A program made the position numbers and the translations under genes. From positions 267,242 to 331,241 of the forward strand of contig DASTXL010000001.1 of NCBI GenBank assembly GCA_035758565.1: a stretch of 64,000 nt of DNA. The letters run 5' to 3'. The DNA is from Candidatus Saccharimonadales bacterium. GTDB lineage: Bacteria > Patescibacteriota > Saccharimonadia > Saccharimonadales > UBA10212. Positions 35,340-57,320 of this stretch are shown piece after piece. A model generated the notes under the pieces. That model worked only from the letters and a program-made list of their open reading frames with translations, searched no databases and was not told the origin of the DNA. Position 1 is the stretch's first letter. Each line of letters begins with the position of its first letter.

Positions 35340-35494
35340 CGAACCCTCCTTAGTTTAATCATGAACCTTACTATATACGGTTATTATGCTTATGCCAAGT
35401 TGCGGCTTCGCCTCATAAGAGCAAGCCTGCAGTTTTTCCTCCTTGTAACTCCTTGCTTTTCTTATTAGGTTTACTGAGTTGTTATAATAGATAT

Positions 35495-35749
35495 ATGAGC
35501 GAGCCAGCAACCGTAACTATATACAGCGCTCCTTGGTGCGCCTTCTGCCGGATGGCCAAGGACTATTTAACGAGCCTTAATGTAGCCTATAAAGACATTA
35601 ACGTCGATGAAGACCACGACGCCGCCCGAGCAATGGTGGCCAAGACCGGCCAGGCCGGAATTCCCGTTTTAGAGATAGGCGAAGCGGTAGTTATTGGCTT
35701 CGACAAACCCCGAATTGATTCAGCATTAAAACAATACAATCTGGCCTAG
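35495..35749 (+). CDS. Glutaredoxin-like protein (NrdH/YruB type)
   Basis: VTIYSAPWCAFCRMAKDYL (CxxC) and GIPVLEIG. I moved the start to ATG 35495, which lies 6 nt after TATAAT (35483-35488). Confidence 0.75.
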   Translation: MSEPATVTIYSAPWCAFCRMAKDYLTSLNVAYKDINVDEDHDAARAMVAKTGQAGIPVLEIGEAVVIGFDKPRIDSALKQYNLA

Positions 35750-35801: not shown

Positions 35802-36386
35802 ATGAGCGAGATACTCGACAGACCAGCTGGCGGTGAGATGCCGCGCAATCCGTTAGACGGCTTTTCTTTTATAGCCGGAAGCTTTGCTGAACCGTTACCG
35901 GCTCGGGTTAACGACATTAAAAAAGCTAACCCCAGTCATAGAACCCAAACTCCGGAACTAATAATGTACACCTTAGAGTTAGCCGGTCTAATCCCGTCGC
36001 GAGAACAATTGGAGCTTCAGAGGGCGGAATTCTTAGACTTCGAGAACGTTGAAGGTCAGGAGCAAGCCTTAGAAGCCGCCGCTGCGCTGCGGCAGGCCAT
36101 CCAGGAGGCCGCCAACGAGGCTTCTGTGGAGCGCTTAGAAATGCGTCCATCGCAATTTGACGCGATTCGCCAAGCAACCAGCATCTTGACTCCTGCCAAC
36201 ACGCCGGCTCTAAAAATTATTAAAGCTATGGCCACCAAACACAAACACGCCGATAGAGACATTAAGGTTGACGCGCTATTAAATCCTACCGAAGCCGCTT
36301 ACTGCGAAGATGTGTTTAGAATTCTGGCTGCCAGACAATTGCAGACTGAATATTCTGATAGAATAAGCGGGCAATATGGCGTTTGA
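35802..36386 (+). CDS. Hypothetical protein (194 aa)
   Basis: ORF overlaps the cobO-like start by 11 nt, implying coupled translation. No motif recognised. Confidence 0.5.
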   Translation: MSEILDRPAGGEMPRNPLDGFSFIAGSFAEPLPARVNDIKKANPSHRTQTPELIMYTLELAGLIPSREQLELQRAEFLDFENVEGQEQALEAAAALRQAIQEAANEASVERLEMRPSQFDAIRQATSILTPANTPALKIIKAMATKHKHADRDIKVDALLNPTEAAYCEDVFRILAARQLQTEYSDRISGQYGV

Positions 36387-36945
36387 AGACTATAAAACAA
36401 AAGAGTCAGTAATCGTTGTTTACACTGGCGAGGGCAAAGGAAAAACCAGCGCCAGCGTAGGTTTGTTAGCCCGATCCTTGGGCAGCGGCTGGAGGGCTGC
36501 CTACATTCAATTCATTAAGCATTGGAACGTCGGCGAGCACGACTTTATTCACAAAATCGAACCGGTTTTTGGCGATAAACTCTTCTTTTATAAAGGCGGC
36601 AAAGGCTTTTACGATGCCGGAGATTTGAGCGCCAAAAACGTCTCAGAAGAAGAACATAAAAAGGCCGCTCAAAGCACTTACGATATGGCTTACAAACTAG
36701 CCACTAGCGGTGACTATGATATTGTGATTTGCGACGAAATAAACAACGCCGCCCATCATGGCCTAATAACCAAAGACGATTTAAAGAAACTTATTAAAGA
36801 CAAGGCAGAGAAGACCAGCCTGTGCCTAACTGGCCGCGATTTTCCGGAAGAGCTGCTGCCGCTCACCGACATCGCTACTAACATGACCAAAATCAAACAT
36901 CACTTCGACGATAAGTTTCTGGCGAACAAGGGTATTGATTTCTAG
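36376..36945 (+). CDS. cobO: Cob(I)yrinic acid a,c-diamide / cob(I)alamin adenosyltransferase (CobA/CobO/BtuR family)
   Basis: VIVVYTGEGKGKTSASVGLLARSLGSGWRAAYIQFIKHWNVGE matches the P-loop family signature. Confidence 0.8.
   Translation: MAFEDYKTKESVIVVYTGEGKGKTSASVGLLARSLGSGWRAAYIQFIKHWNVGEHDFIHKIEPVFGDKLFFYKGGKGFYDAGDLSAKNVSEEEHKKAAQSTYDMAYKLATSGDYDIVICDEINNAAHHGLITKDDLKKLIKDKAEKTSLCLTGRDFPEELLPLTDIATNMTKIKHHFDDKFLANKGIDF
36893..36944 (+). repeat. Direct repeat copy 1 (last 52 nt of cobO)
   Basis: tcaaacatcacttcgacgataagtttctggcgaacaagggtattgatttcta is identical to 37024-37075. Confidence 0.95.
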
Positions 36946-36994
36946 AAAGATCGCTATTTACCCCTGGTTGGATGTTTGATTTTCTATCCGGGGC

Positions 36995-37018
36995 CCCCGC
37001 AAATTTTAATTTGTGGGG
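36995..37018 (+). terminator. Hairpin CCCCGCAAATTTTAATTTGTGGGG (family copy H1), likely the cobO terminator
   Basis: 10-11 bp stem including one G-U pair, followed by ttt. 22/24 identical to the reverse complement of 57297-57320. Confidence 0.55.
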
Positions 37019-37023
37019 TTTAG

Positions 37024-37075
37024 TCAAACATCACTTCGACGATAAGTTTCTGGCGAACAAGGGTATTGATTTCTA
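37024..37075 (+). repeat. Direct repeat copy 2 (orphan copy of the cobO 3' end)
   Basis: 52/52 identical to 36893-36944. The next base makes a TAA stop where copy 1 has TAG. Its end overlaps the stop codon of the convergent ParB-like gene. Confidence 0.95.
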
Positions 37076-38314
37076 ACCTAGGGCTAGCTGATCTGGATGC
37101 ACTTCCAGAGTTTCATCAATCTCTCGCCTACCCAAGCTATCTATAGCATCAAGAAGACCAAGCTCTGTTGCTCTTTGAGCGACCCTTCTAATCCTCTCTA
37201 AATCCCGCCCCTCAATTGGTAAATGCGCGCCAACTTCTACTAATGATTTAGACAATAGAAGACCTTCGACTGCCCCTCGAGCTATTGTTGTTTGCCGTTT
37301 TTTAGCGCTCTGATGCCATCTTTCCACTTGTCTTTCAATAGCATTTTGAGTTTGCGTATAGATTTCGAGTTGATTTGTGTTTCTCAGATTGTCCGCCTGT
37401 CCTAAAATACGCTTTCGGGCTTGGTCAGAAGACATTTTTTCTGATTTAGGCAGCGCAGGATTCATCTTAGAAGCAATGTTAATGGCAGCAGATTTAACCC
37501 TATCGTCGGCATCAAGTGTAGCGAGCTCTAGTAGATCCAGGTAATTCTCTGCGCTAACCTCACCACCCTCTGCCTCGGCAGAACGTTGAGCAATAAAATA
37601 ATCAATAGCGGCTCTGTGTAACTTAGTAAGCTCGGTGGCCAAATTGTAAGATAACCTACCGTCGTCTACCAATTTGTGCACGACTTCAGGCAGGGCAAAG
37701 TAGCGAAGAGCTTCGCGAGTAGCATCTTGACCTAGAGGGGAGTCAGGCAAAAAATCTGCAATCGAGTTATAGCGCCCCTCTTTGCAGCCTACAAAGTACA
37801 TTTCTCGGACGGCTTTAGCATATTGAATTGCCGGTGGCCTGTCATGAAAGTTCTCGCTGATTTGTAAACGCATGATTTCCTCAGGCGACAAACAGGGAAA
37901 GACTCTAGCGTGGATTAAAGTCTGCTCGCGCGAATAACCGTTTTCTTTTGCAATTTGCAAATAGGCGCGGTCACGCCGGTGCCCGGCCGCCAAAATCAAC
38001 ACAGTGCCATCGGGTTGTATTTTATTTTCGGGTACCTGCACATTTTTGCCCCAGCATTCGTTGGTGTAAGAAACGTAGCGCCTGGCCACATCAAGTGGTG
38101 TCTGAGCCAAAAAAATAGATGTGTGCATCTCGTTGTGGGACTTAATATCATGCACGAGCTCTTGATGTTTTTCGCTATCATGAGCGGCGCGCATCTGGCC
38201 GGCGATAATATAAGAGTCCATTGGCACCTGAACAATTACTGGAGTTTCGCCTATCTGAAAATACTCCGGCCGTTGATTTTCTTTGCTTTGCAAGGTCTCA
38301 TCAACCGCCGACAT
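37073..38314 (-). CDS. ParB/Srx-fold N-terminal domain protein with ParB-like HTH (413 aa)
   Basis: LILAAGHRRDRAYLQ resembles the ParB arginine patch GERRxRA. Downstream is the HTH-like LSYNLATELTKL, then a coiled C-terminal region. Confidence 0.65.
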   Translation of the reverse strand: MSAVDETLQSKENQRPEYFQIGETPVIVQVPMDSYIIAGQMRAAHDSEKHQELVHDIKSHNEMHTSIFLAQTPLDVARRYVSYTNECWGKNVQVPENKIQPDGTVLILAAGHRRDRAYLQIAKENGYSREQTLIHARVFPCLSPEEIMRLQISENFHDRPPAIQYAKAVREMYFVGCKEGRYNSIADFLPDSPLGQDATREALRYFALPEVVHKLVDDGRLSYNLATELTKLHRAAIDYFIAQRSAEAEGGEVSAENYLDLLELATLDADDRVKSAAINIASKMNPALPKSEKMSSDQARKRILGQADNLRNTNQLEIYTQTQNAIERQVERWHQSAKKRQTTIARGAVEGLLLSKSLVEVGAHLPIEGRDLERIRRVAQRATELGLLDAIDSLGRREIDETLEVHPDQLALG

Positions 38315-38382
38315 TACCTTCTACTTGCCCTCATCTTTATCCTTAGTATACCCTTCATAATCATTATCAAAACTGCTTATGC

Positions 38383-39210
38383 TTAGGTTAGCGCTTCCTG
38401 AAAGTCGCTAACATTAGGTTTTTCGTAACGCTTGGTTGGCTTTTTGCCCAGGCGGCGGCGTTTTTCGCGAGCGACACAACTTGCCAACGTGATCATCAGT
38501 GTATCGCGGTCTAGCTTCTGAAGCTCTCGGGCACCAAATCTGGTAGATAATATTACCCGGTAGCCTTCCAGCAGAGCAGCAATCGGGGCGTAATTATGAC
38601 CATTTGCGCCAACCATGGCTAACTGGCCAGTTTTTAGCGCCGCCTCCAGCGGCACAGCGTTATCTTTGCGAATATTATTCTCCAAGCTGGTCATGCGCTT
38701 GGAGTGACCCGGATTGCAGCAACTCGTAAACCGGCACATATGCTCCACGTCATGTTCTGGCGTCAGAAGAGGAATATCTTCTGCGTCCATAAGTTCTTGG
38801 CGGGCACGCGTCACCCGGTGCAGGCCACTCTGTCCAGAGGGGGTCATGCCAAGCTCATTATCAGTGGCTCCGGCGTAGCCAGCATAATTCAGATAATAAT
38901 CCGGCACCCAGCAGCCAGTAACATCGTCTATGACTATTCTGTCGAGGATACGGCGGGGAATAGAATTAGGATCATCCTGGGTGTAGTAATGCTTTTCAAA
39001 AAGCAAGTGCGAAGCATAAGGACCCAGTAGTTCCTCGCCATAAATAGAAAAGACCCTGGGTTGATCCAGGGTCAGTTGTTGAAAGGCGGCTTCGTCGCCG
39101 CCCGGTGCGCTGATGCGCCCATCGCGAATATCAATAGCCCGAGTCAGCAAAACACCGCCCATGTCGTTTTTTGTTTCTATTTTCTCAATGCCGGTTAAAC
39201 CGAGCGGCAT
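38383..39210 (-). CDS. HNH (His-Me finger) endonuclease domain protein (275 aa)
   Basis: CWVP...GYAGAT...GLHRVTRA...DVEHMCRFTSCCNPGHSKRMTSLENN matches the HNH_3/homing-endonuclease-like pattern. Confidence 0.7.
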   Translation of the reverse strand: MPLGLTGIEKIETKNDMGGVLLTRAIDIRDGRISAPGGDEAAFQQLTLDQPRVFSIYGEELLGPYASHLLFEKHYYTQDDPNSIPRRILDRIVIDDVTGCWVPDYYLNYAGYAGATDNELGMTPSGQSGLHRVTRARQELMDAEDIPLLTPEHDVEHMCRFTSCCNPGHSKRMTSLENNIRKDNAVPLEAALKTGQLAMVGANGHNYAPIAALLEGYRVILSTRFGARELQKLDRDTLMITLASCVAREKRRRLGKKPTKRYEKPNVSDFQEALT

Positions 39211-39393
39211 TAGTGTTACCCTCCACTTGCCTTTTTGTGAATACCTAAATTGTACGTATTAAAAGCAAGCTATAGGTATTGTTTTTTTGTCATCAGACAA
39301 TATTGTTTACAGTTTAGGAAATTATTACCAAAGAAGTTAATCAGATAATAGTATTTTTTACATCGCAAGCAATCGCTAGAGTAAAATGTGCTT

Positions 39394-39972
39394 ATGGCTA
39401 GACGATATCGCCGCAAACATTTTGCCAGCTTTGTCACTTTTATTGTTGCCGTTTTAGTAGTGGTAGCCACGCAGTCGGGCTGGCTTGAGTCCGGAACCAA
39501 AACCGCCGAGATTAACCAACCAGGACTTTATACAGTCACTCATTATGTAGATGGCGACACCATCGACGTTAACATGAACGGTGCCACCGAGACTATCCGT
39601 TTTATAGGCGTTGACACCCCAGAAACTCACAAGCCAAACACGCCCGTACAATGCTACGGAGAGCTAGCCGCTGCCAACACCAAAAACGTTATAAGCAAAT
39701 ATGGTAAAGTCCGCCTGCAAGCCGATCCCCTGGATACCAACCGCGATCGCTACGGACGATTGTTGCGCTACGTCTATTTACCCGACGGCACTTTGATGGA
39801 TGAGAAGATTATCCAAGGTGGTTACGGCTTTGCCTATACATTGTTTCCGTTCAGCAAGAAAGCGCAATTTAGCGCCGACATGCAAGCCGCCCAAGCCGCC
39901 AAACGCGGCCTTTGGGGTGCTTGCCAGATTCATCAAGAAACCGACGGCGTTTACCAAACCAATAGTGCTTGA
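39394..39972 (+). CDS. Membrane-anchored thermonuclease (SNase/micrococcal nuclease family)
   Basis: N-terminal TM helix; VDGDTIDV and IRFIGVDTPET; RYGRLLRYVY. ATG 39394 lies 6 nt after TAAAAT (39382-39387). The ORF track starts at GTG 39388. Confidence 0.8.
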   Translation: MARRYRRKHFASFVTFIVAVLVVVATQSGWLESGTKTAEINQPGLYTVTHYVDGDTIDVNMNGATETIRFIGVDTPETHKPNTPVQCYGELAAANTKNVISKYGKVRLQADPLDTNRDRYGRLLRYVYLPDGTLMDEKIIQGGYGFAYTLFPFSKKAQFSADMQAAQAAKRGLWGACQIHQETDGVYQTNSA

Positions 39973-40005: not shown

Positions 40006-41106
40006 ATGATACCCTTCTTAAATCGTGAACCACACCAGCCCCAAGCGCCTCAACCAGAAATAGCTCCTCTTGCTATCGAGACAGAGCTTTGGACACCGGG
40101 CAAACCAGAGACGCAAAACCTTGATCCGAAGCTAGAAAAAGCCATCGGCGATGTAGTCCGTGAAATGAATAGAGCCGACGCCCATCAAACGCTTCACGAC
40201 CTACAACGCCAGGTAAGGATGTCAGAAAATAGCGTCGTCACCGCTATGTTGTACGGTCGAAACCGCAGTGAGTATTCAGATAATGAGGCTATGGTCATGT
40301 TTAATCCTTTCGCCAATATGGCTACACCTAACATGTTGGTAAGAGCCGAATTCATCCGCCGCGTCGCCAAAGAAATGGGCGTCACCGACGATAAGGGCAA
40401 GCTTAAGCCGGTGATCATGATTGCCGCACCGGGGCCCGGCCACGGACTAAGACTGACTCAAGCTGATCGAGAAGAAATTGAACACGGCAATTTAGGGCCG
40501 GCGGCCAAAGAATTGTTAGAAGGCATAAAAAGATATGATATGGGCAAGGTCGCCATGCTTGGCTTCTCACAGGGAGCGGATGTGGCCTTAGCCGGAGCTC
40601 AAGAAGCTTACTCCGGCAACTTTGATGTTGATGCGCTGTCTTTAGGTGATCCGGCCGGTGTCCATGACCGGACAACCAAAGATATTAGTAAAGATTTTAG
40701 AAAAACCGGCTTAGGCGCTCTGCGACAAGCAGGCAAAGCTACCGGATTAAAGGTTCAGCAAAAAGCTTTACTAGGAATAACTGGCTGGGGTATTGGAGGA
40801 ATAGCAAAGTTTGGCCTGGCTTCACAAACACCTACAAATAAACTTCTTTGGAAGGGCATGACCGTGGATAGCTTTAAGGCTAATATGCAAGCCGTGCTAG
40901 ACGAAGGCCGGGTCAGCAAGTTGGTTGTTGGCTATGGTGGCGACAGTGCTATTGCCAAGCCGGAGTGGATCGAACCTGCGATAGATGAATTGTATGACGA
41001 AAATAGCAGTGAAGCTTTTATATCAATTAAGGTTGCTGGCGCCAATCACACCTGGGGTGATAATCTAGAACTTCTTACCAAGCTTTATATGAGAGCGCTC
41101 GTTTAA
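40006..41106 (+). CDS. Hypothetical protein, possible alpha/beta-hydrolase fold
   Basis: Nucleophile-elbow-like GFSQGAD, later DPAG and GANHTW (candidate Ser-Asp-His triad). Confidence 0.4.
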   Translation: MIPFLNREPHQPQAPQPEIAPLAIETELWTPGKPETQNLDPKLEKAIGDVVREMNRADAHQTLHDLQRQVRMSENSVVTAMLYGRNRSEYSDNEAMVMFNPFANMATPNMLVRAEFIRRVAKEMGVTDDKGKLKPVIMIAAPGPGHGLRLTQADREEIEHGNLGPAAKELLEGIKRYDMGKVAMLGFSQGADVALAGAQEAYSGNFDVDALSLGDPAGVHDRTTKDISKDFRKTGLGALRQAGKATGLKVQQKALLGITGWGIGGIAKFGLASQTPTNKLLWKGMTVDSFKANMQAVLDEGRVSKLVVGYGGDSAIAKPEWIEPAIDELYDENSSEAFISIKVAGANHTWGDNLELLTKLYMRALV

Positions 41107-51408: not shown

Positions 51409-52858
51409 TGGGCCGGTTCGGACTCGTTTTGCGCCTAGTCCAACAGGTTACTTACACGTCGGCGGTATTCGCACTGCGCTGTTTGCATGGCTTTTGGCCC
51501 GTCAAGCCGGCAACGATGGCCAGTTTATCTTGCGGCTTGAAGATACCGACAAAAATCGCGAGGTAACCGGCGCTGACGAGCACATAATGAAGAGCCTAAA
51601 AGCTCTGGGTCTTAATTACGACGAAGGCCCGGACATCGGCGGTCCGTTCGGGCCGTATCGCCAAAGCGAGCGCCTGGATATTTATAGAAAGTGGGCCGAA
51701 AAATTAATAAAGAAGGGCAGAGCCTATGCCGATCCTTATTCTCCAATCGAAGTTCAAGCTTTTAGAGAGCAAGCTCAAAAAGAAAAGCGCCCGTTTTTAT
51801 ATCGTGACCGTCGGCCAGAGAATCCGCCGAGATGGGACGGCAGTCAGCCTTTGCGTTTTAAGTCAGAGCCCAAAGCCTACGTCTGGCACGATGAAGTTAT
51901 GGGCGATCTTTCAACCGGGCCGGAAGTCATCGACGACTTTATTTTAATTAAATCCGATGGTTATCCAACCTATAACTTCGCTCACATAATTGACGATCTC
52001 GAAATGCAGATCAGCCATGTTATCCGTGGCCAGGAGTTCCTAGCCAGCATGCCGAACTACCTAAATCTTTACGAGGCATTGGGTATCGAGCGGCCTGTGC
52101 TGGCCACCATGCCGCACATTTTGGGCCCGGATGGCAATAAGAAACTATCTAAGCGTGATGGCGCTAAAGATGTGCTGGATTACATCCGTGAGGGCTATCT
52201 GCCAGACGCACTAGTTAACTTTATTGCCAGCCTGGGCTGGAATGACGGCACCGAGCAGGAAATTTTTAGCCGTAATGAACTTACCGAGAAATTCCGCCTG
52301 GATCATGTGCAGCGTAGCGGCGCCCGCTTTGATGAGCGTCGCTTAACCTGGATGAATGGACACTATATCCGGGAACTTTCTTTGAAAGAATTAGCCGAAA
52401 GAGCAGCCGACTTTTGGCCGGCCAAAGCCAAAGCAGCAGACGAAACTTACAAAAACGCCATTCTTGGCCTTGTGCAGGAACGTTTGAAATATTTTGCCGA
52501 ACTGCCAGAGCTTACCAGGTTTTTCTTTGAAGAGCCCGATACCTCAAACGTCAAAGAGTTATATAAAAATCCAGTCGACAAGCAACTCAAGAAAATTGAG
52601 TTTAGCGATTATAAGCCAATGCTCGACAAGGTAATTACAAAATTAGAAAACTCTGACTTTTCCGAAGATAACATTACGAACAGCCTCAACCAGCTTCTAG
52701 AAGAGTTAGGCACCAAACCCGGCGTTTTATTTGCCTTAGTCCGCATAGCTTTGACTGGGCAAACCAGTTCGCCGCAAATCTTTGGAACTTTGCACGTCTT
52801 GGGCCAAGAAAAGTCCATCAATAGACTTAAAAAAGCCGCTGAAACGCTGGCCAACTAA
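51308..52858 (+). CDS. gltX: Glutamate--tRNA ligase
   Basis: RTRFAPSPTGYLHVGGIRTALF (HIGH region) and KLSKRDG (KMSKS). The conserved core starts near GTG 51404 (MRGPVRTRF...). The 32 codons from ATG 51308 coincide with repeat copy B, so the true start is uncertain. Confidence 0.9.
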   Translation: MKYGEGMPQPATPPGAKSTGGVAGPADKQSAAVRGPVRTRFAPSPTGYLHVGGIRTALFAWLLARQAGNDGQFILRLEDTDKNREVTGADEHIMKSLKALGLNYDEGPDIGGPFGPYRQSERLDIYRKWAEKLIKKGRAYADPYSPIEVQAFREQAQKEKRPFLYRDRRPENPPRWDGSQPLRFKSEPKAYVWHDEVMGDLSTGPEVIDDFILIKSDGYPTYNFAHIIDDLEMQISHVIRGQEFLASMPNYLNLYEALGIERPVLATMPHILGPDGNKKLSKRDGAKDVLDYIREGYLPDALVNFIASLGWNDGTEQEIFSRNELTEKFRLDHVQRSGARFDERRLTWMNGHYIRELSLKELAERAADFWPAKAKAADETYKNAILGLVQERLKYFAELPELTRFFFEEPDTSNVKELYKNPVDKQLKKIEFSDYKPMLDKVITKLENSDFSEDNITNSLNQLLEELGTKPGVLFALVRIALTGQTSSPQIFGTLHVLGQEKSINRLKKAAETLAN

Positions 52859-57281: not shown

Positions 57282-57296
57282 GGCGCCACCAGTGCA

Positions 57297-57320
57297 CCCC
57301 ACAAAGTAAACTTTGCGGGG
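57297..57320 (-). repeat. Hairpin family copy H2 (minus strand reads CCCCGCAAAGTTTACTTTGTGGGG)
   Basis: 22/24 identical to H1 (36995-37018). The two differences fall on paired positions (T-A becomes G-C). Not followed by a T-run on either strand. Confidence 0.8.

Follow-up and report, generated by a model that had tools for sequence, protein, structure and literature searches.

A divergent ParB-like gene of Saccharibacteria and its recurrent HNH nuclease neighbour

When a ParB-like gene without a ParA gene nearby lies next to the gene of an HNH nuclease, do the two products act together on DNA, or is one gene simply the landing site of the other? This question is raised by two adjacent genes in a metagenome-assembled genome of Candidatus Saccharimonadales, which we analysed in a window of 64 kb (the whole stretch of DNA considered here) from a 483,507-bp contig. 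Each of the two proteins was found once in a collection of 5.8 billion proteins, with the NCBI annotation "hypothetical protein". The answer that we favour, with a probability of about 0.45, is that the larger protein is an orphan DNA clamp, switched by a nucleotide in the manner of ParB, and that an HNH nuclease serves as its facultative partner, the two cooperating on DNA. The pair consists of the following open reading frames (ORFs; lengths in amino acids, aa):

37073..38314, minus strand: ParB/Noc-like protein, most likely an orphan, 413 aa, VFT49_01780 (ORF)
38383..39210, minus strand: predicted HNH_3/His-Me finger nuclease, 275 aa, VFT49_01785 (ORF and homology)

A first-pass annotation of this DNA, made from the sequence alone, had already picked out these two genes. 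The ORFs, the peptides it quoted, a 16-nt leader motif and a repeat of the cobO gene are all present, and its reading of the larger protein as ParB/Noc-type, with an arginine patch and a helix-turn-helix (HTH), and of the smaller as a His-Me/HNH nuclease was borne out by the profile, structure-model and homology searches given below.

The ParB-like protein and its nucleotide pocket

The 413-aa protein has the fold of the ParB family and belongs to it, the residues of the nucleotide pocket being conserved, and judging from its sequence it is most likely a divergent, ParA-less orphan of the ParB/Noc/KorB type. The assignment depends on a family profile together with a structure model, the window sequence alone being insufficient for it. 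Searched by itself against Pfam, NCBIfam, PADLOC and the PDB sequences the protein gave nothing usable, and there was no match to the PF02195, TIGR00180 or TIGR04285/Noc models at E values up to 1. A word-indexed protein search returned only the query for both proteins of the locus, and the family profile added one further protein. Relatives were collected by exhaustive phmmer searches (E up to 1e-3), giving a family of about 380 clusters (382 representatives); residues were counted over the top 150 relatives, while the family profile and the per-relative model searches comprised 60 sequences. The middle 90% of the top 150 relatives are 350–457 aa long, and the conserved portion covers the first ~240 residues.

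With the 60-sequence profile, the PDB yielded ParB/Spo0J and Noc proteins of Myxococcus, Thermus, Caulobacter and Bacillus (best E 2e-8), in alignments that span Box I, Box II, Box III and the HTH. Several of the 60 relatives, taken singly, also matched curated models (12 to PF02195, five to PF17762, 16 to TIGR00180 and 10 to the Noc model), with E values down to 5e-10. An AlphaFold2 (AF2) model of the window protein on the family alignment had a predicted local distance difference test score (pLDDT) of 85.7, and the top Foldseek matches to it were Noc (7nfu), ParB (7bnk, 6sdk, 6t1f) and KorB (8qa9), followed by sulfiredoxin. The domains and motifs could be placed as follows:

37835..38242, minus strand: predicted ParB/Srx N-terminal nucleotide-binding domain, about residues 25–160 (census and ParB box alignment)
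38189-38197, minus strand: Box I, Q40-x-R42 (residue census)
37961-37990, minus strand: Box II, A-G111-H-R-R114-D-R-A (residue census)
37850-37864, minus strand: Box III, Q151-x-x-E154-N155 (residue census)
37574..37831, minus strand: ParB-type HTH region, predicted to bind DNA, about residues 162–247 (profile, PF17762 and model helices)
37619-37654, minus strand: LSYNLATELTKL, residues 221–232, inside the HTH region
37076..37552, minus strand: long all-helical C-terminal region, about residues 255–413, clade-specific (AF2)

The pocket is kept across the 150 relatives at nearly every position (G111, R114 and Q151 in 150, N155 in 149, R42 and E154 in 145, Q40 in 144), and the Box II P-motif GxxR is invariant (150/150). 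The protein would thus be expected to bind a nucleotide; which one is not predictable from sequence for the ParB-CTPase fold (PMC12704722). The HTH is placed by profile positions 190–226, whose counterparts in ParB of Myxococcus and Spo0J of Thermus form the HTH. Beyond it, the model has four helices (residues 255–283, 296–317, 323–362 and 370–394; pLDDT 62–96) in a region where the alignment holds the closest relatives only. The Pfam model of the ParB C-terminal dimerisation domain was matched by none of the 60 relatives, and these helices are presumed, from the model, to serve dimerisation or partner binding.

The peptide AAGHRRDRAY (residues 109–118) includes a Box II that reads GHRRDRA, and this had at first been set against the GERRxRA of ParB. 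Of the 150 relatives, 127 have His at position 112 and 19 have Glu, and the two closest relatives (P0003 and P0004) carry AGERRIRA and AGERRLRA, the canonical AGERRxRA. The difference is a polymorphism within one family, and as a separate signature it was rejected.

The protein shares with the CTP-dependent clamps ParB, Noc and KorB (PF02195 with PF17762) an N-terminal ParB/Srx fold followed by a ParB HTH, as well as the Q-x-R of Box I, the G-x-x-R of Box II (GERRxRA in the closest relatives) and the E-N of Box III. Unlike them, it has no ParA partner or ParA-binding motif and no parS site found in the window, its C-terminal helices are long and different, most members of its family have His for Glu in Box II, it falls under every curated threshold, it evolves fast and it has a recurrent nuclease partner.

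These differences bear on the possibility that we are dealing with an ordinary chromosomal ParB or Noc, engaged in segregation or SMC loading with its ParA and parS elsewhere, and with an unrelated HNH gene next door. Such a protein would be expected to look much as this one does in being conserved, syntenic, chromosomal and single-copy in the window (there is no second ParB-like ORF in the 64 kb), with ParB and Noc as its nearest solved and curated relatives. We nevertheless find this explanation quite improbable. No ORF with a ParA-type KGGxGK[ST] Walker box exists across the whole 64 kb, as the first-pass annotation had noticed for the vicinity of the pair, and ParA is missing from all 12 related loci described below. 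The window protein, its N-terminus included, lacks the ParA-binding motif [LFI]G[KR]G[LFI], which turned up in a single one of the 150 relatives, there at the C-terminus. No canonical parS (up to three mismatches) was found in the 64 kb, although a divergent site could escape the pattern. The lack of any score of the window protein against TIGR00180, PF02195 and the Noc model, the unmatched dimerisation model and a divergence about three times that of the neighbouring genes point the same way, and the recurrent adjacency and fusion to an HNH gene are hard to put down to chance.

The HNH protein and its conserved core

The 275-aa protein is, by its sequence, a divergent HNH_3-type His-Me nuclease with its putative catalytic and zinc-binding residues intact. 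It matched HNH endonuclease families of PHROG (E ~1e-6), and tblastn retrieved small phage HNH endonucleases (E 4e-6) that align to residues 80–194 with 30–36% identity. Its own Pfam score is low (13.7 bits vs a cut-off of 27), while its homologues match PF05551 and PF13392, and the version fused to a ParB-like protein in one relative (P0078) reaches 28.2 bits against the PF05551 cut-off of 27. A search of the PDB with the HNH profile returned noise only, and scans of viral sequences recovered generic HNH cores only.

The peptides LHRV, DVEHMC, CNPGH and ENN lie at residues 130–179, within a signature GCW...GY...HR...(D/E)H-x-C-x4-CC-N-P-x-H...EN, and an alignment of four sequences allowed us to place the core:

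38668..38751, minus strand: predicted catalytic core, D-V-E-H157-M-C159-x4-C164-C165-N166-P-G-H169...E-N178-N (four-sequence alignment)

Invariant in this alignment are H157, C159, C164, P167, H169, N178, G99-C100-W101 and H131-R132. The predicted active site of the window protein consists of E-H157, N166 and N178, with H157 and N178 unvaried across homologues; the putative zinc cluster C-x4-CC-N-P-x-H has three unvarying residues, C159, C164 and H169, and the window protein has C165 as well. On this basis the protein would be expected to cleave DNA. The core is extended at both the N- and the C-terminus by lineage-specific sequence, and the tail is basic. The core motif, at ~30–36% identity over ~100 residues, is what it has in common with the free-standing HNH_3 endonucleases of phages, homing enzymes included; it differs from them in ~170 extra Saccharibacteria-specific residues, in its chromosomal location and in always occurring with a ParB-like gene.

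Genomic context and the link between the two genes

To place the pair in context, the window was compared with 12 related loci, making 13 contexts in all. Six of these loci (L002, L004, L005, L006, L016 and L017) have the same order of genes, namely an SNase gene (minus strand), the ParB-like gene (plus strand), a variable slot, cobO (minus strand) and a glutaredoxin gene, L004 lacking CobO; another, L020, retains the portion from the ParB-like gene through the slot to CobO. In at least seven Saccharibacteria contigs, then, the ParB-like gene stands at the same chromosomal place by cobO or the SNase gene. CobO is 60–86% identical among loci vs ~31–40% for the ParB-like protein. Because synteny is kept while identity is so far below that of CobO, we take the ParB-like gene, from these sequence comparisons, to have been passed down vertically at a fixed place in the chromosome of Saccharibacteria while evolving fast. 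Both it and the HNH gene diverge much faster than their neighbours, the ParB-like gene about three times as fast.

What is inserted in the slot that separates the ParB-like gene from cobO varies (L016 7453-8160, L017 2266-2880, L020 6167-7531; empty in L005 and L006). Depending on the locus, the slot contains an HNH gene, a GH1 glycosidase gene, the gene of a Cys/His-rich 235-aa protein with no assigned function, or nothing, and in L017 and L020 the start codon of the inserted gene overlaps the stop codon of cobO (TAATG). In two loci without an HNH gene (L001 7303-7914 and L018 2838-3386) the ParB-like gene is preceded by an uncharacterised gene in divergent orientation; the products in L001 and L018 are homologous to each other (29% identity, E 5e-15), have no Pfam domain and may represent another recurrent neighbour of the ParB-like gene. 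As the uncharacterised neighbours of ParB-like genes in the HNH-less loci have no Pfam domain, alternative nuclease partners are unsupported.

An HNH homologue is beside or fused to the ParB-like gene in five of the 13 contexts, about a third, in the following arrangements:

Window: HNH gene directly upstream of the ParB-like gene, same strand
L002 and L004: HNH gene directly downstream of the ParB-like gene, same strand
L017: HNH gene convergent with the ParB-like gene, its start overlapping the cobO stop codon (TAATG)
P0078/L007: full-length HNH protein in frame at the N-terminus of a full-length ParB-like protein, 656 aa
L001, L005, L006, L016 and L018-L021: HNH homologue not found

The fusion lies among genes for TruB, S15 and PNPase, a context unrelated to the cobO/SNase locus. 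A scan of metagenomes starting from the HNH protein gave two loci of this same type, L004 again and L011, in which the HNH gene directly adjoins cobO and this cobO is 86% identical to that of the window; a genome scan with narrow alignments returned L002 and L004, both already known. The HNH domains of L017 and L007 are 44% identical and their ParB-like parts 26%, and for this reason the association must have formed independently at least twice, as far as sequence comparison can tell. The window has the order HNH then ParB-like (37073-39210), the reverse of L002 (5089-7344) and L004 (2876-5004); in L011 (2-1036), with the HNH gene abutting cobO, the order is probably that of L002 and L004. Since the window is in this respect unlike its nearest relatives, the comparison indicates that two neighbouring genes on one strand recently changed places in its lineage; such a swap may also explain the duplicated leader motif and the scar at cobO described in the last section.

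We think that adjacency and fusion argue for a real relationship between the two genes, and that the proteins may come into physical contact. In the cooperative scheme, a dimer of the ParB-like protein would recognise DNA through its HTH, and a nucleoside triphosphate in the pocket formed by Boxes I, II and III would shut the gate of the N-terminal domain as it does in ParB. The HNH protein, which here would come from the same transcript and which in one relative is joined covalently at the N-terminus, would be brought to the clamped DNA or licensed on it, and would then nick or cut that DNA; where a lineage has no HNH gene, the clamp would act alone. Given that both genes diverge rapidly, the most likely role would be in some form of genetic conflict.

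Several observations weigh against this scheme. Eight of the 13 contexts have the ParB-like gene without an HNH homologue, order and orientation vary, the convergent pair of L017 is not co-transcribed, and fusions amount to one in 150 family representatives. The window protein has His where Box II has Glu. No DNA target was found, there being no repeated palindrome near the locus and none common to the 13 loci, and the AF2 model of the HNH protein, from a two-row alignment, reached a pLDDT of 30.4. The first-pass idea of a two-gene module survives these counts in part: the genes are co-conserved, since they lie side by side in three further lineages and form a fusion in a fifth, but the linkage is facultative and has no fixed order or orientation.

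The distribution of the HNH gene fits a homing endonuclease that targets the locus almost as well as it fits cooperation. In that case the HNH protein would be a selfish, free-standing enzyme that cleaves alleles lacking the HNH gene, within the ParB-like gene or next to it, and whose gene spreads into them during repair; the ParB-like gene would be only its landing site, with no cooperation between the two proteins. The sporadic presence of the gene (five of 13 contexts), its occurrence on either side and in either orientation, with L017 having the gap between convergent stop codons exactly filled, and the fresh rearrangement scar and gene-order swap in the window are all as expected of such an element. 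So are its nearest named relatives, small phage HNH endonucleases, and the fact that PF05551 is a homing-endonuclease model. Similarities are also incongruent, both in the comparison of L017 and L007 given above and in L011, whose HNH protein is 45% identical to that of L002 and 36% to that of the window while its CobO is nearest to the window's (86%); copying by repair is plausible in naturally competent Saccharibacteria. Against this, L007 has a full-length HNH protein fused in frame to a full-length ParB-like protein, none of the five lineages has lost the catalytic or zinc residues, no decayed copies were seen, and the HNH gene was apparently co-inherited with the ParB-like gene across the deep divergence of the clade of the window, L002 and L004. 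Neither a DNA-binding module typical of homing enzymes nor any viral-contig relative beyond the generic core was detected. We regard homing as possible though on the whole unlikely; if true, it would be a rare case of intron-less homing in a cellular chromosome of the candidate phyla radiation (CPR).

A different kind of conflict system is suggested by GmrSD, BrxU and SspE, type IV restriction enzymes that combine a DUF262 ParB-fold NTPase with a DUF1524 His-Me nuclease, and the first-pass annotation had drawn this parallel. A dedicated anti-phage or anti-plasmid defence of this sort, split into a ParB-fold NTPase sensor and a His-Me nuclease effector, would account for the domain logic (a nucleotide-binding ParB-fold module, here predicted, with a His-Me nuclease, split or fused) and for the fast divergence of both genes relative to neighbours such as CobO. 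The two proteins, however, belong to other subfamilies of both domains, ParB proper with an HTH rather than DUF262/DUF1524, and the ParB-like gene is a fixed syntenic gene mostly without a nuclease, in a housekeeping neighbourhood with no defence island and no modification gene nearby. No PADLOC family matched the window proteins, and across the 60 relatives there were only scattered single matches. With no DUF262 or DUF1524 match in Pfam either, membership in GmrSD or another PADLOC defence family was rejected, and we judge a dedicated defence function to be improbable.

ParB-type CTP switches outside chromosome segregation are a recent recognition, and ParB-HNH combinations, to our knowledge, have been listed but never studied. 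A survey of orphan proteins with the ParB-CTPase fold, which covered ParB-HNH (PF01844) fusions, reported no function for these fusions and tied many orphan homologues to mobile genetic elements (PNAS 2025, PMC12704722). The locus described here has in common with the surveyed proteins a ParB-like gene outside a parAB operon and the combination of the ParB-CTPase fold with HNH, and differs in an HNH of the HNH_3/PF05551 type, mostly encoded by a separate gene in variable arrangement, in the retained HTH and in being a syntenic chromosomal gene of Saccharibacteria (PMC12704722). TasParB of the TIGR-TasA loci of phages and parasitic bacteria is likewise a ParB-like protein operonic with a DNA-targeting partner (here a predicted one), but in the window no TIGR array, tandem repeat or RNA family was found, and the partner is HNH and not a Nop-domain Tas (PMC12045711).

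The locus is accordingly an unannotated variant, with an HNH partner, inside the known family of the ParB-CTPase fold. What makes it useful is a compact and well-delimited family of about 380 unannotated clusters, with the switch residues intact and a fixed chromosomal place, in which the HNH gene is present, absent, re-ordered or fused from lineage to lineage, a natural series for asking if a ParB clamp gates a nuclease. With it, a conserved "hypothetical protein" of an uncultivated phylum with very small genomes acquires a tentative function. A wider proposal, which we consider doubtful, is that in Saccharibacteria, and perhaps in other CPR, a lineage-specific ParB switch has been wired repeatedly to HNH to give a clamp-delivered, nucleotide-gated DNA cutter distinct from the GmrSD-like enzymes. 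Such a cutter could exclude foreign DNA or process DNA taken up from the host, and the split, swapped, convergent and fused forms would be snapshots of the assembly of a two-part enzyme.

Leader motif, cobO repeat and neighbouring genes

The 16-nt motif GGCAAGTRGARGGTAA occurs at exactly two sites in the 64 kb, both at start codons of the pair:

39216..39231, minus strand: leader motif GGCAAGTGGAGGGTAA, 5 nt before the HNH start codon, containing the Shine-Dalgarno (SD) box GGAGG
38314..38329, minus strand: leader motif GGCAAGTAGAAGGTAA, its final base being the A of the ParB-like ATG
38315..38382, minus strand: 68-nt spacer between the genes, with no terminator- or promoter-like site found

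Allowing up to three mismatches to GGCAAGTRGARGGTAA, five sites were observed vs 1.29 expected, a number reached by none of 100 shuffles. Neither GGCAAGT nor AAGTRGARGG is found at any of the other gene starts (59 examined in the window), and GGAGG-type SD boxes are rare, being upstream of four of the 59 starts. The motif, from which common control or common origin had first been suggested, is unique to these two starts, but it is largely a ribosome-binding site with seven extra common bases. As AAGTGGAGGGTAA is also found upstream of the orthologous HNH gene in L004, we read it, on sequence grounds, as a conserved translation-initiation region that was copied locally. Because the spacer has no terminator- or promoter-like site, co-transcription of the HNH and ParB-like genes as an operon is plausible in the window.

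On the other side of the ParB-like gene, the 3' end of cobO is duplicated as a perfect 52-nt direct repeat (36893-36944 and 37024-37075):

36893..37075, plus strand: X(52)-Y(79)-X(52) structure at the boundary of cobO and the ParB-like gene (repeat analysis)

Within the 79-nt insert there is a hairpin (36995-37018), and 13 nt of cobO (36889-36901) recur there in inverted orientation. The second repeat copy shares bases with the stop codon of the ParB-like gene, an overlap that in L005 and L006 is made by cobO itself. The structure is probably a recent repair or rearrangement scar. The hairpin has a counterpart at 57296-57320 (92% identity over 25 nt), possibly a recurrent terminator element.

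The repeat had been seen at first as att-like, marking the boundary of an integrated mobile element of which the pair would be a partition or homing remnant. A perfect duplication beside the pair is what recommends this view. Its two copies, 131 nt apart, are however both found on one side of the genes, between cobO and the stop codon of the ParB-like gene, and do not bracket the pair. The GC content (0.46–0.49) is ordinary for the window, there are no integrase or phage genes among the neighbours, and the order SNase, ParB-like, slot, CobO recurs in genomes with 60–86% identical CobO, the synteny extending over the seven or more contigs noted above. Scans of viral contigs and phage genomes found no ParB-like relatives. 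The att-site reading was rejected, and a mobile-element remnant seems to us very improbable indeed.

The neighbouring genes are of housekeeping type. They encode a UvrD/AddA-type helicase-nuclease, an aquaporin, a glutaredoxin and CobO on one side, and on the opposite side a GT2 glycosyltransferase and the following protein:

39388-39972: SNase with an N-terminal hydrophobic segment, neighbour of the pair

No tandem arrays or Rfam RNAs were found, leaving no TIGR or CRISPR-like context. Two gene starts in the window share a box, TATAGATATATGAG (1387-1428 and 35478-35519, 71% identity over 42 nt). One of them concerns the glutaredoxin gene, whose probable start codon is the ATG at 35495 (MSEPATV...) and not the listed TTG at 35453; box and start together suggest leaderless or very-short-leader transcripts. 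The only long palindrome repeated in the window is the 12-nt perfect palindrome TTGGCCGGCCAA, at 52414 and 61901. Two conserved-looking ORFs without a Pfam match also lie beside the locus, one of 194 aa (35802-36386) that overlaps the cobO start and one of 366 aa (40006-41106) after the SNase gene, the product of the latter being weakly homologous to a protein in L016.

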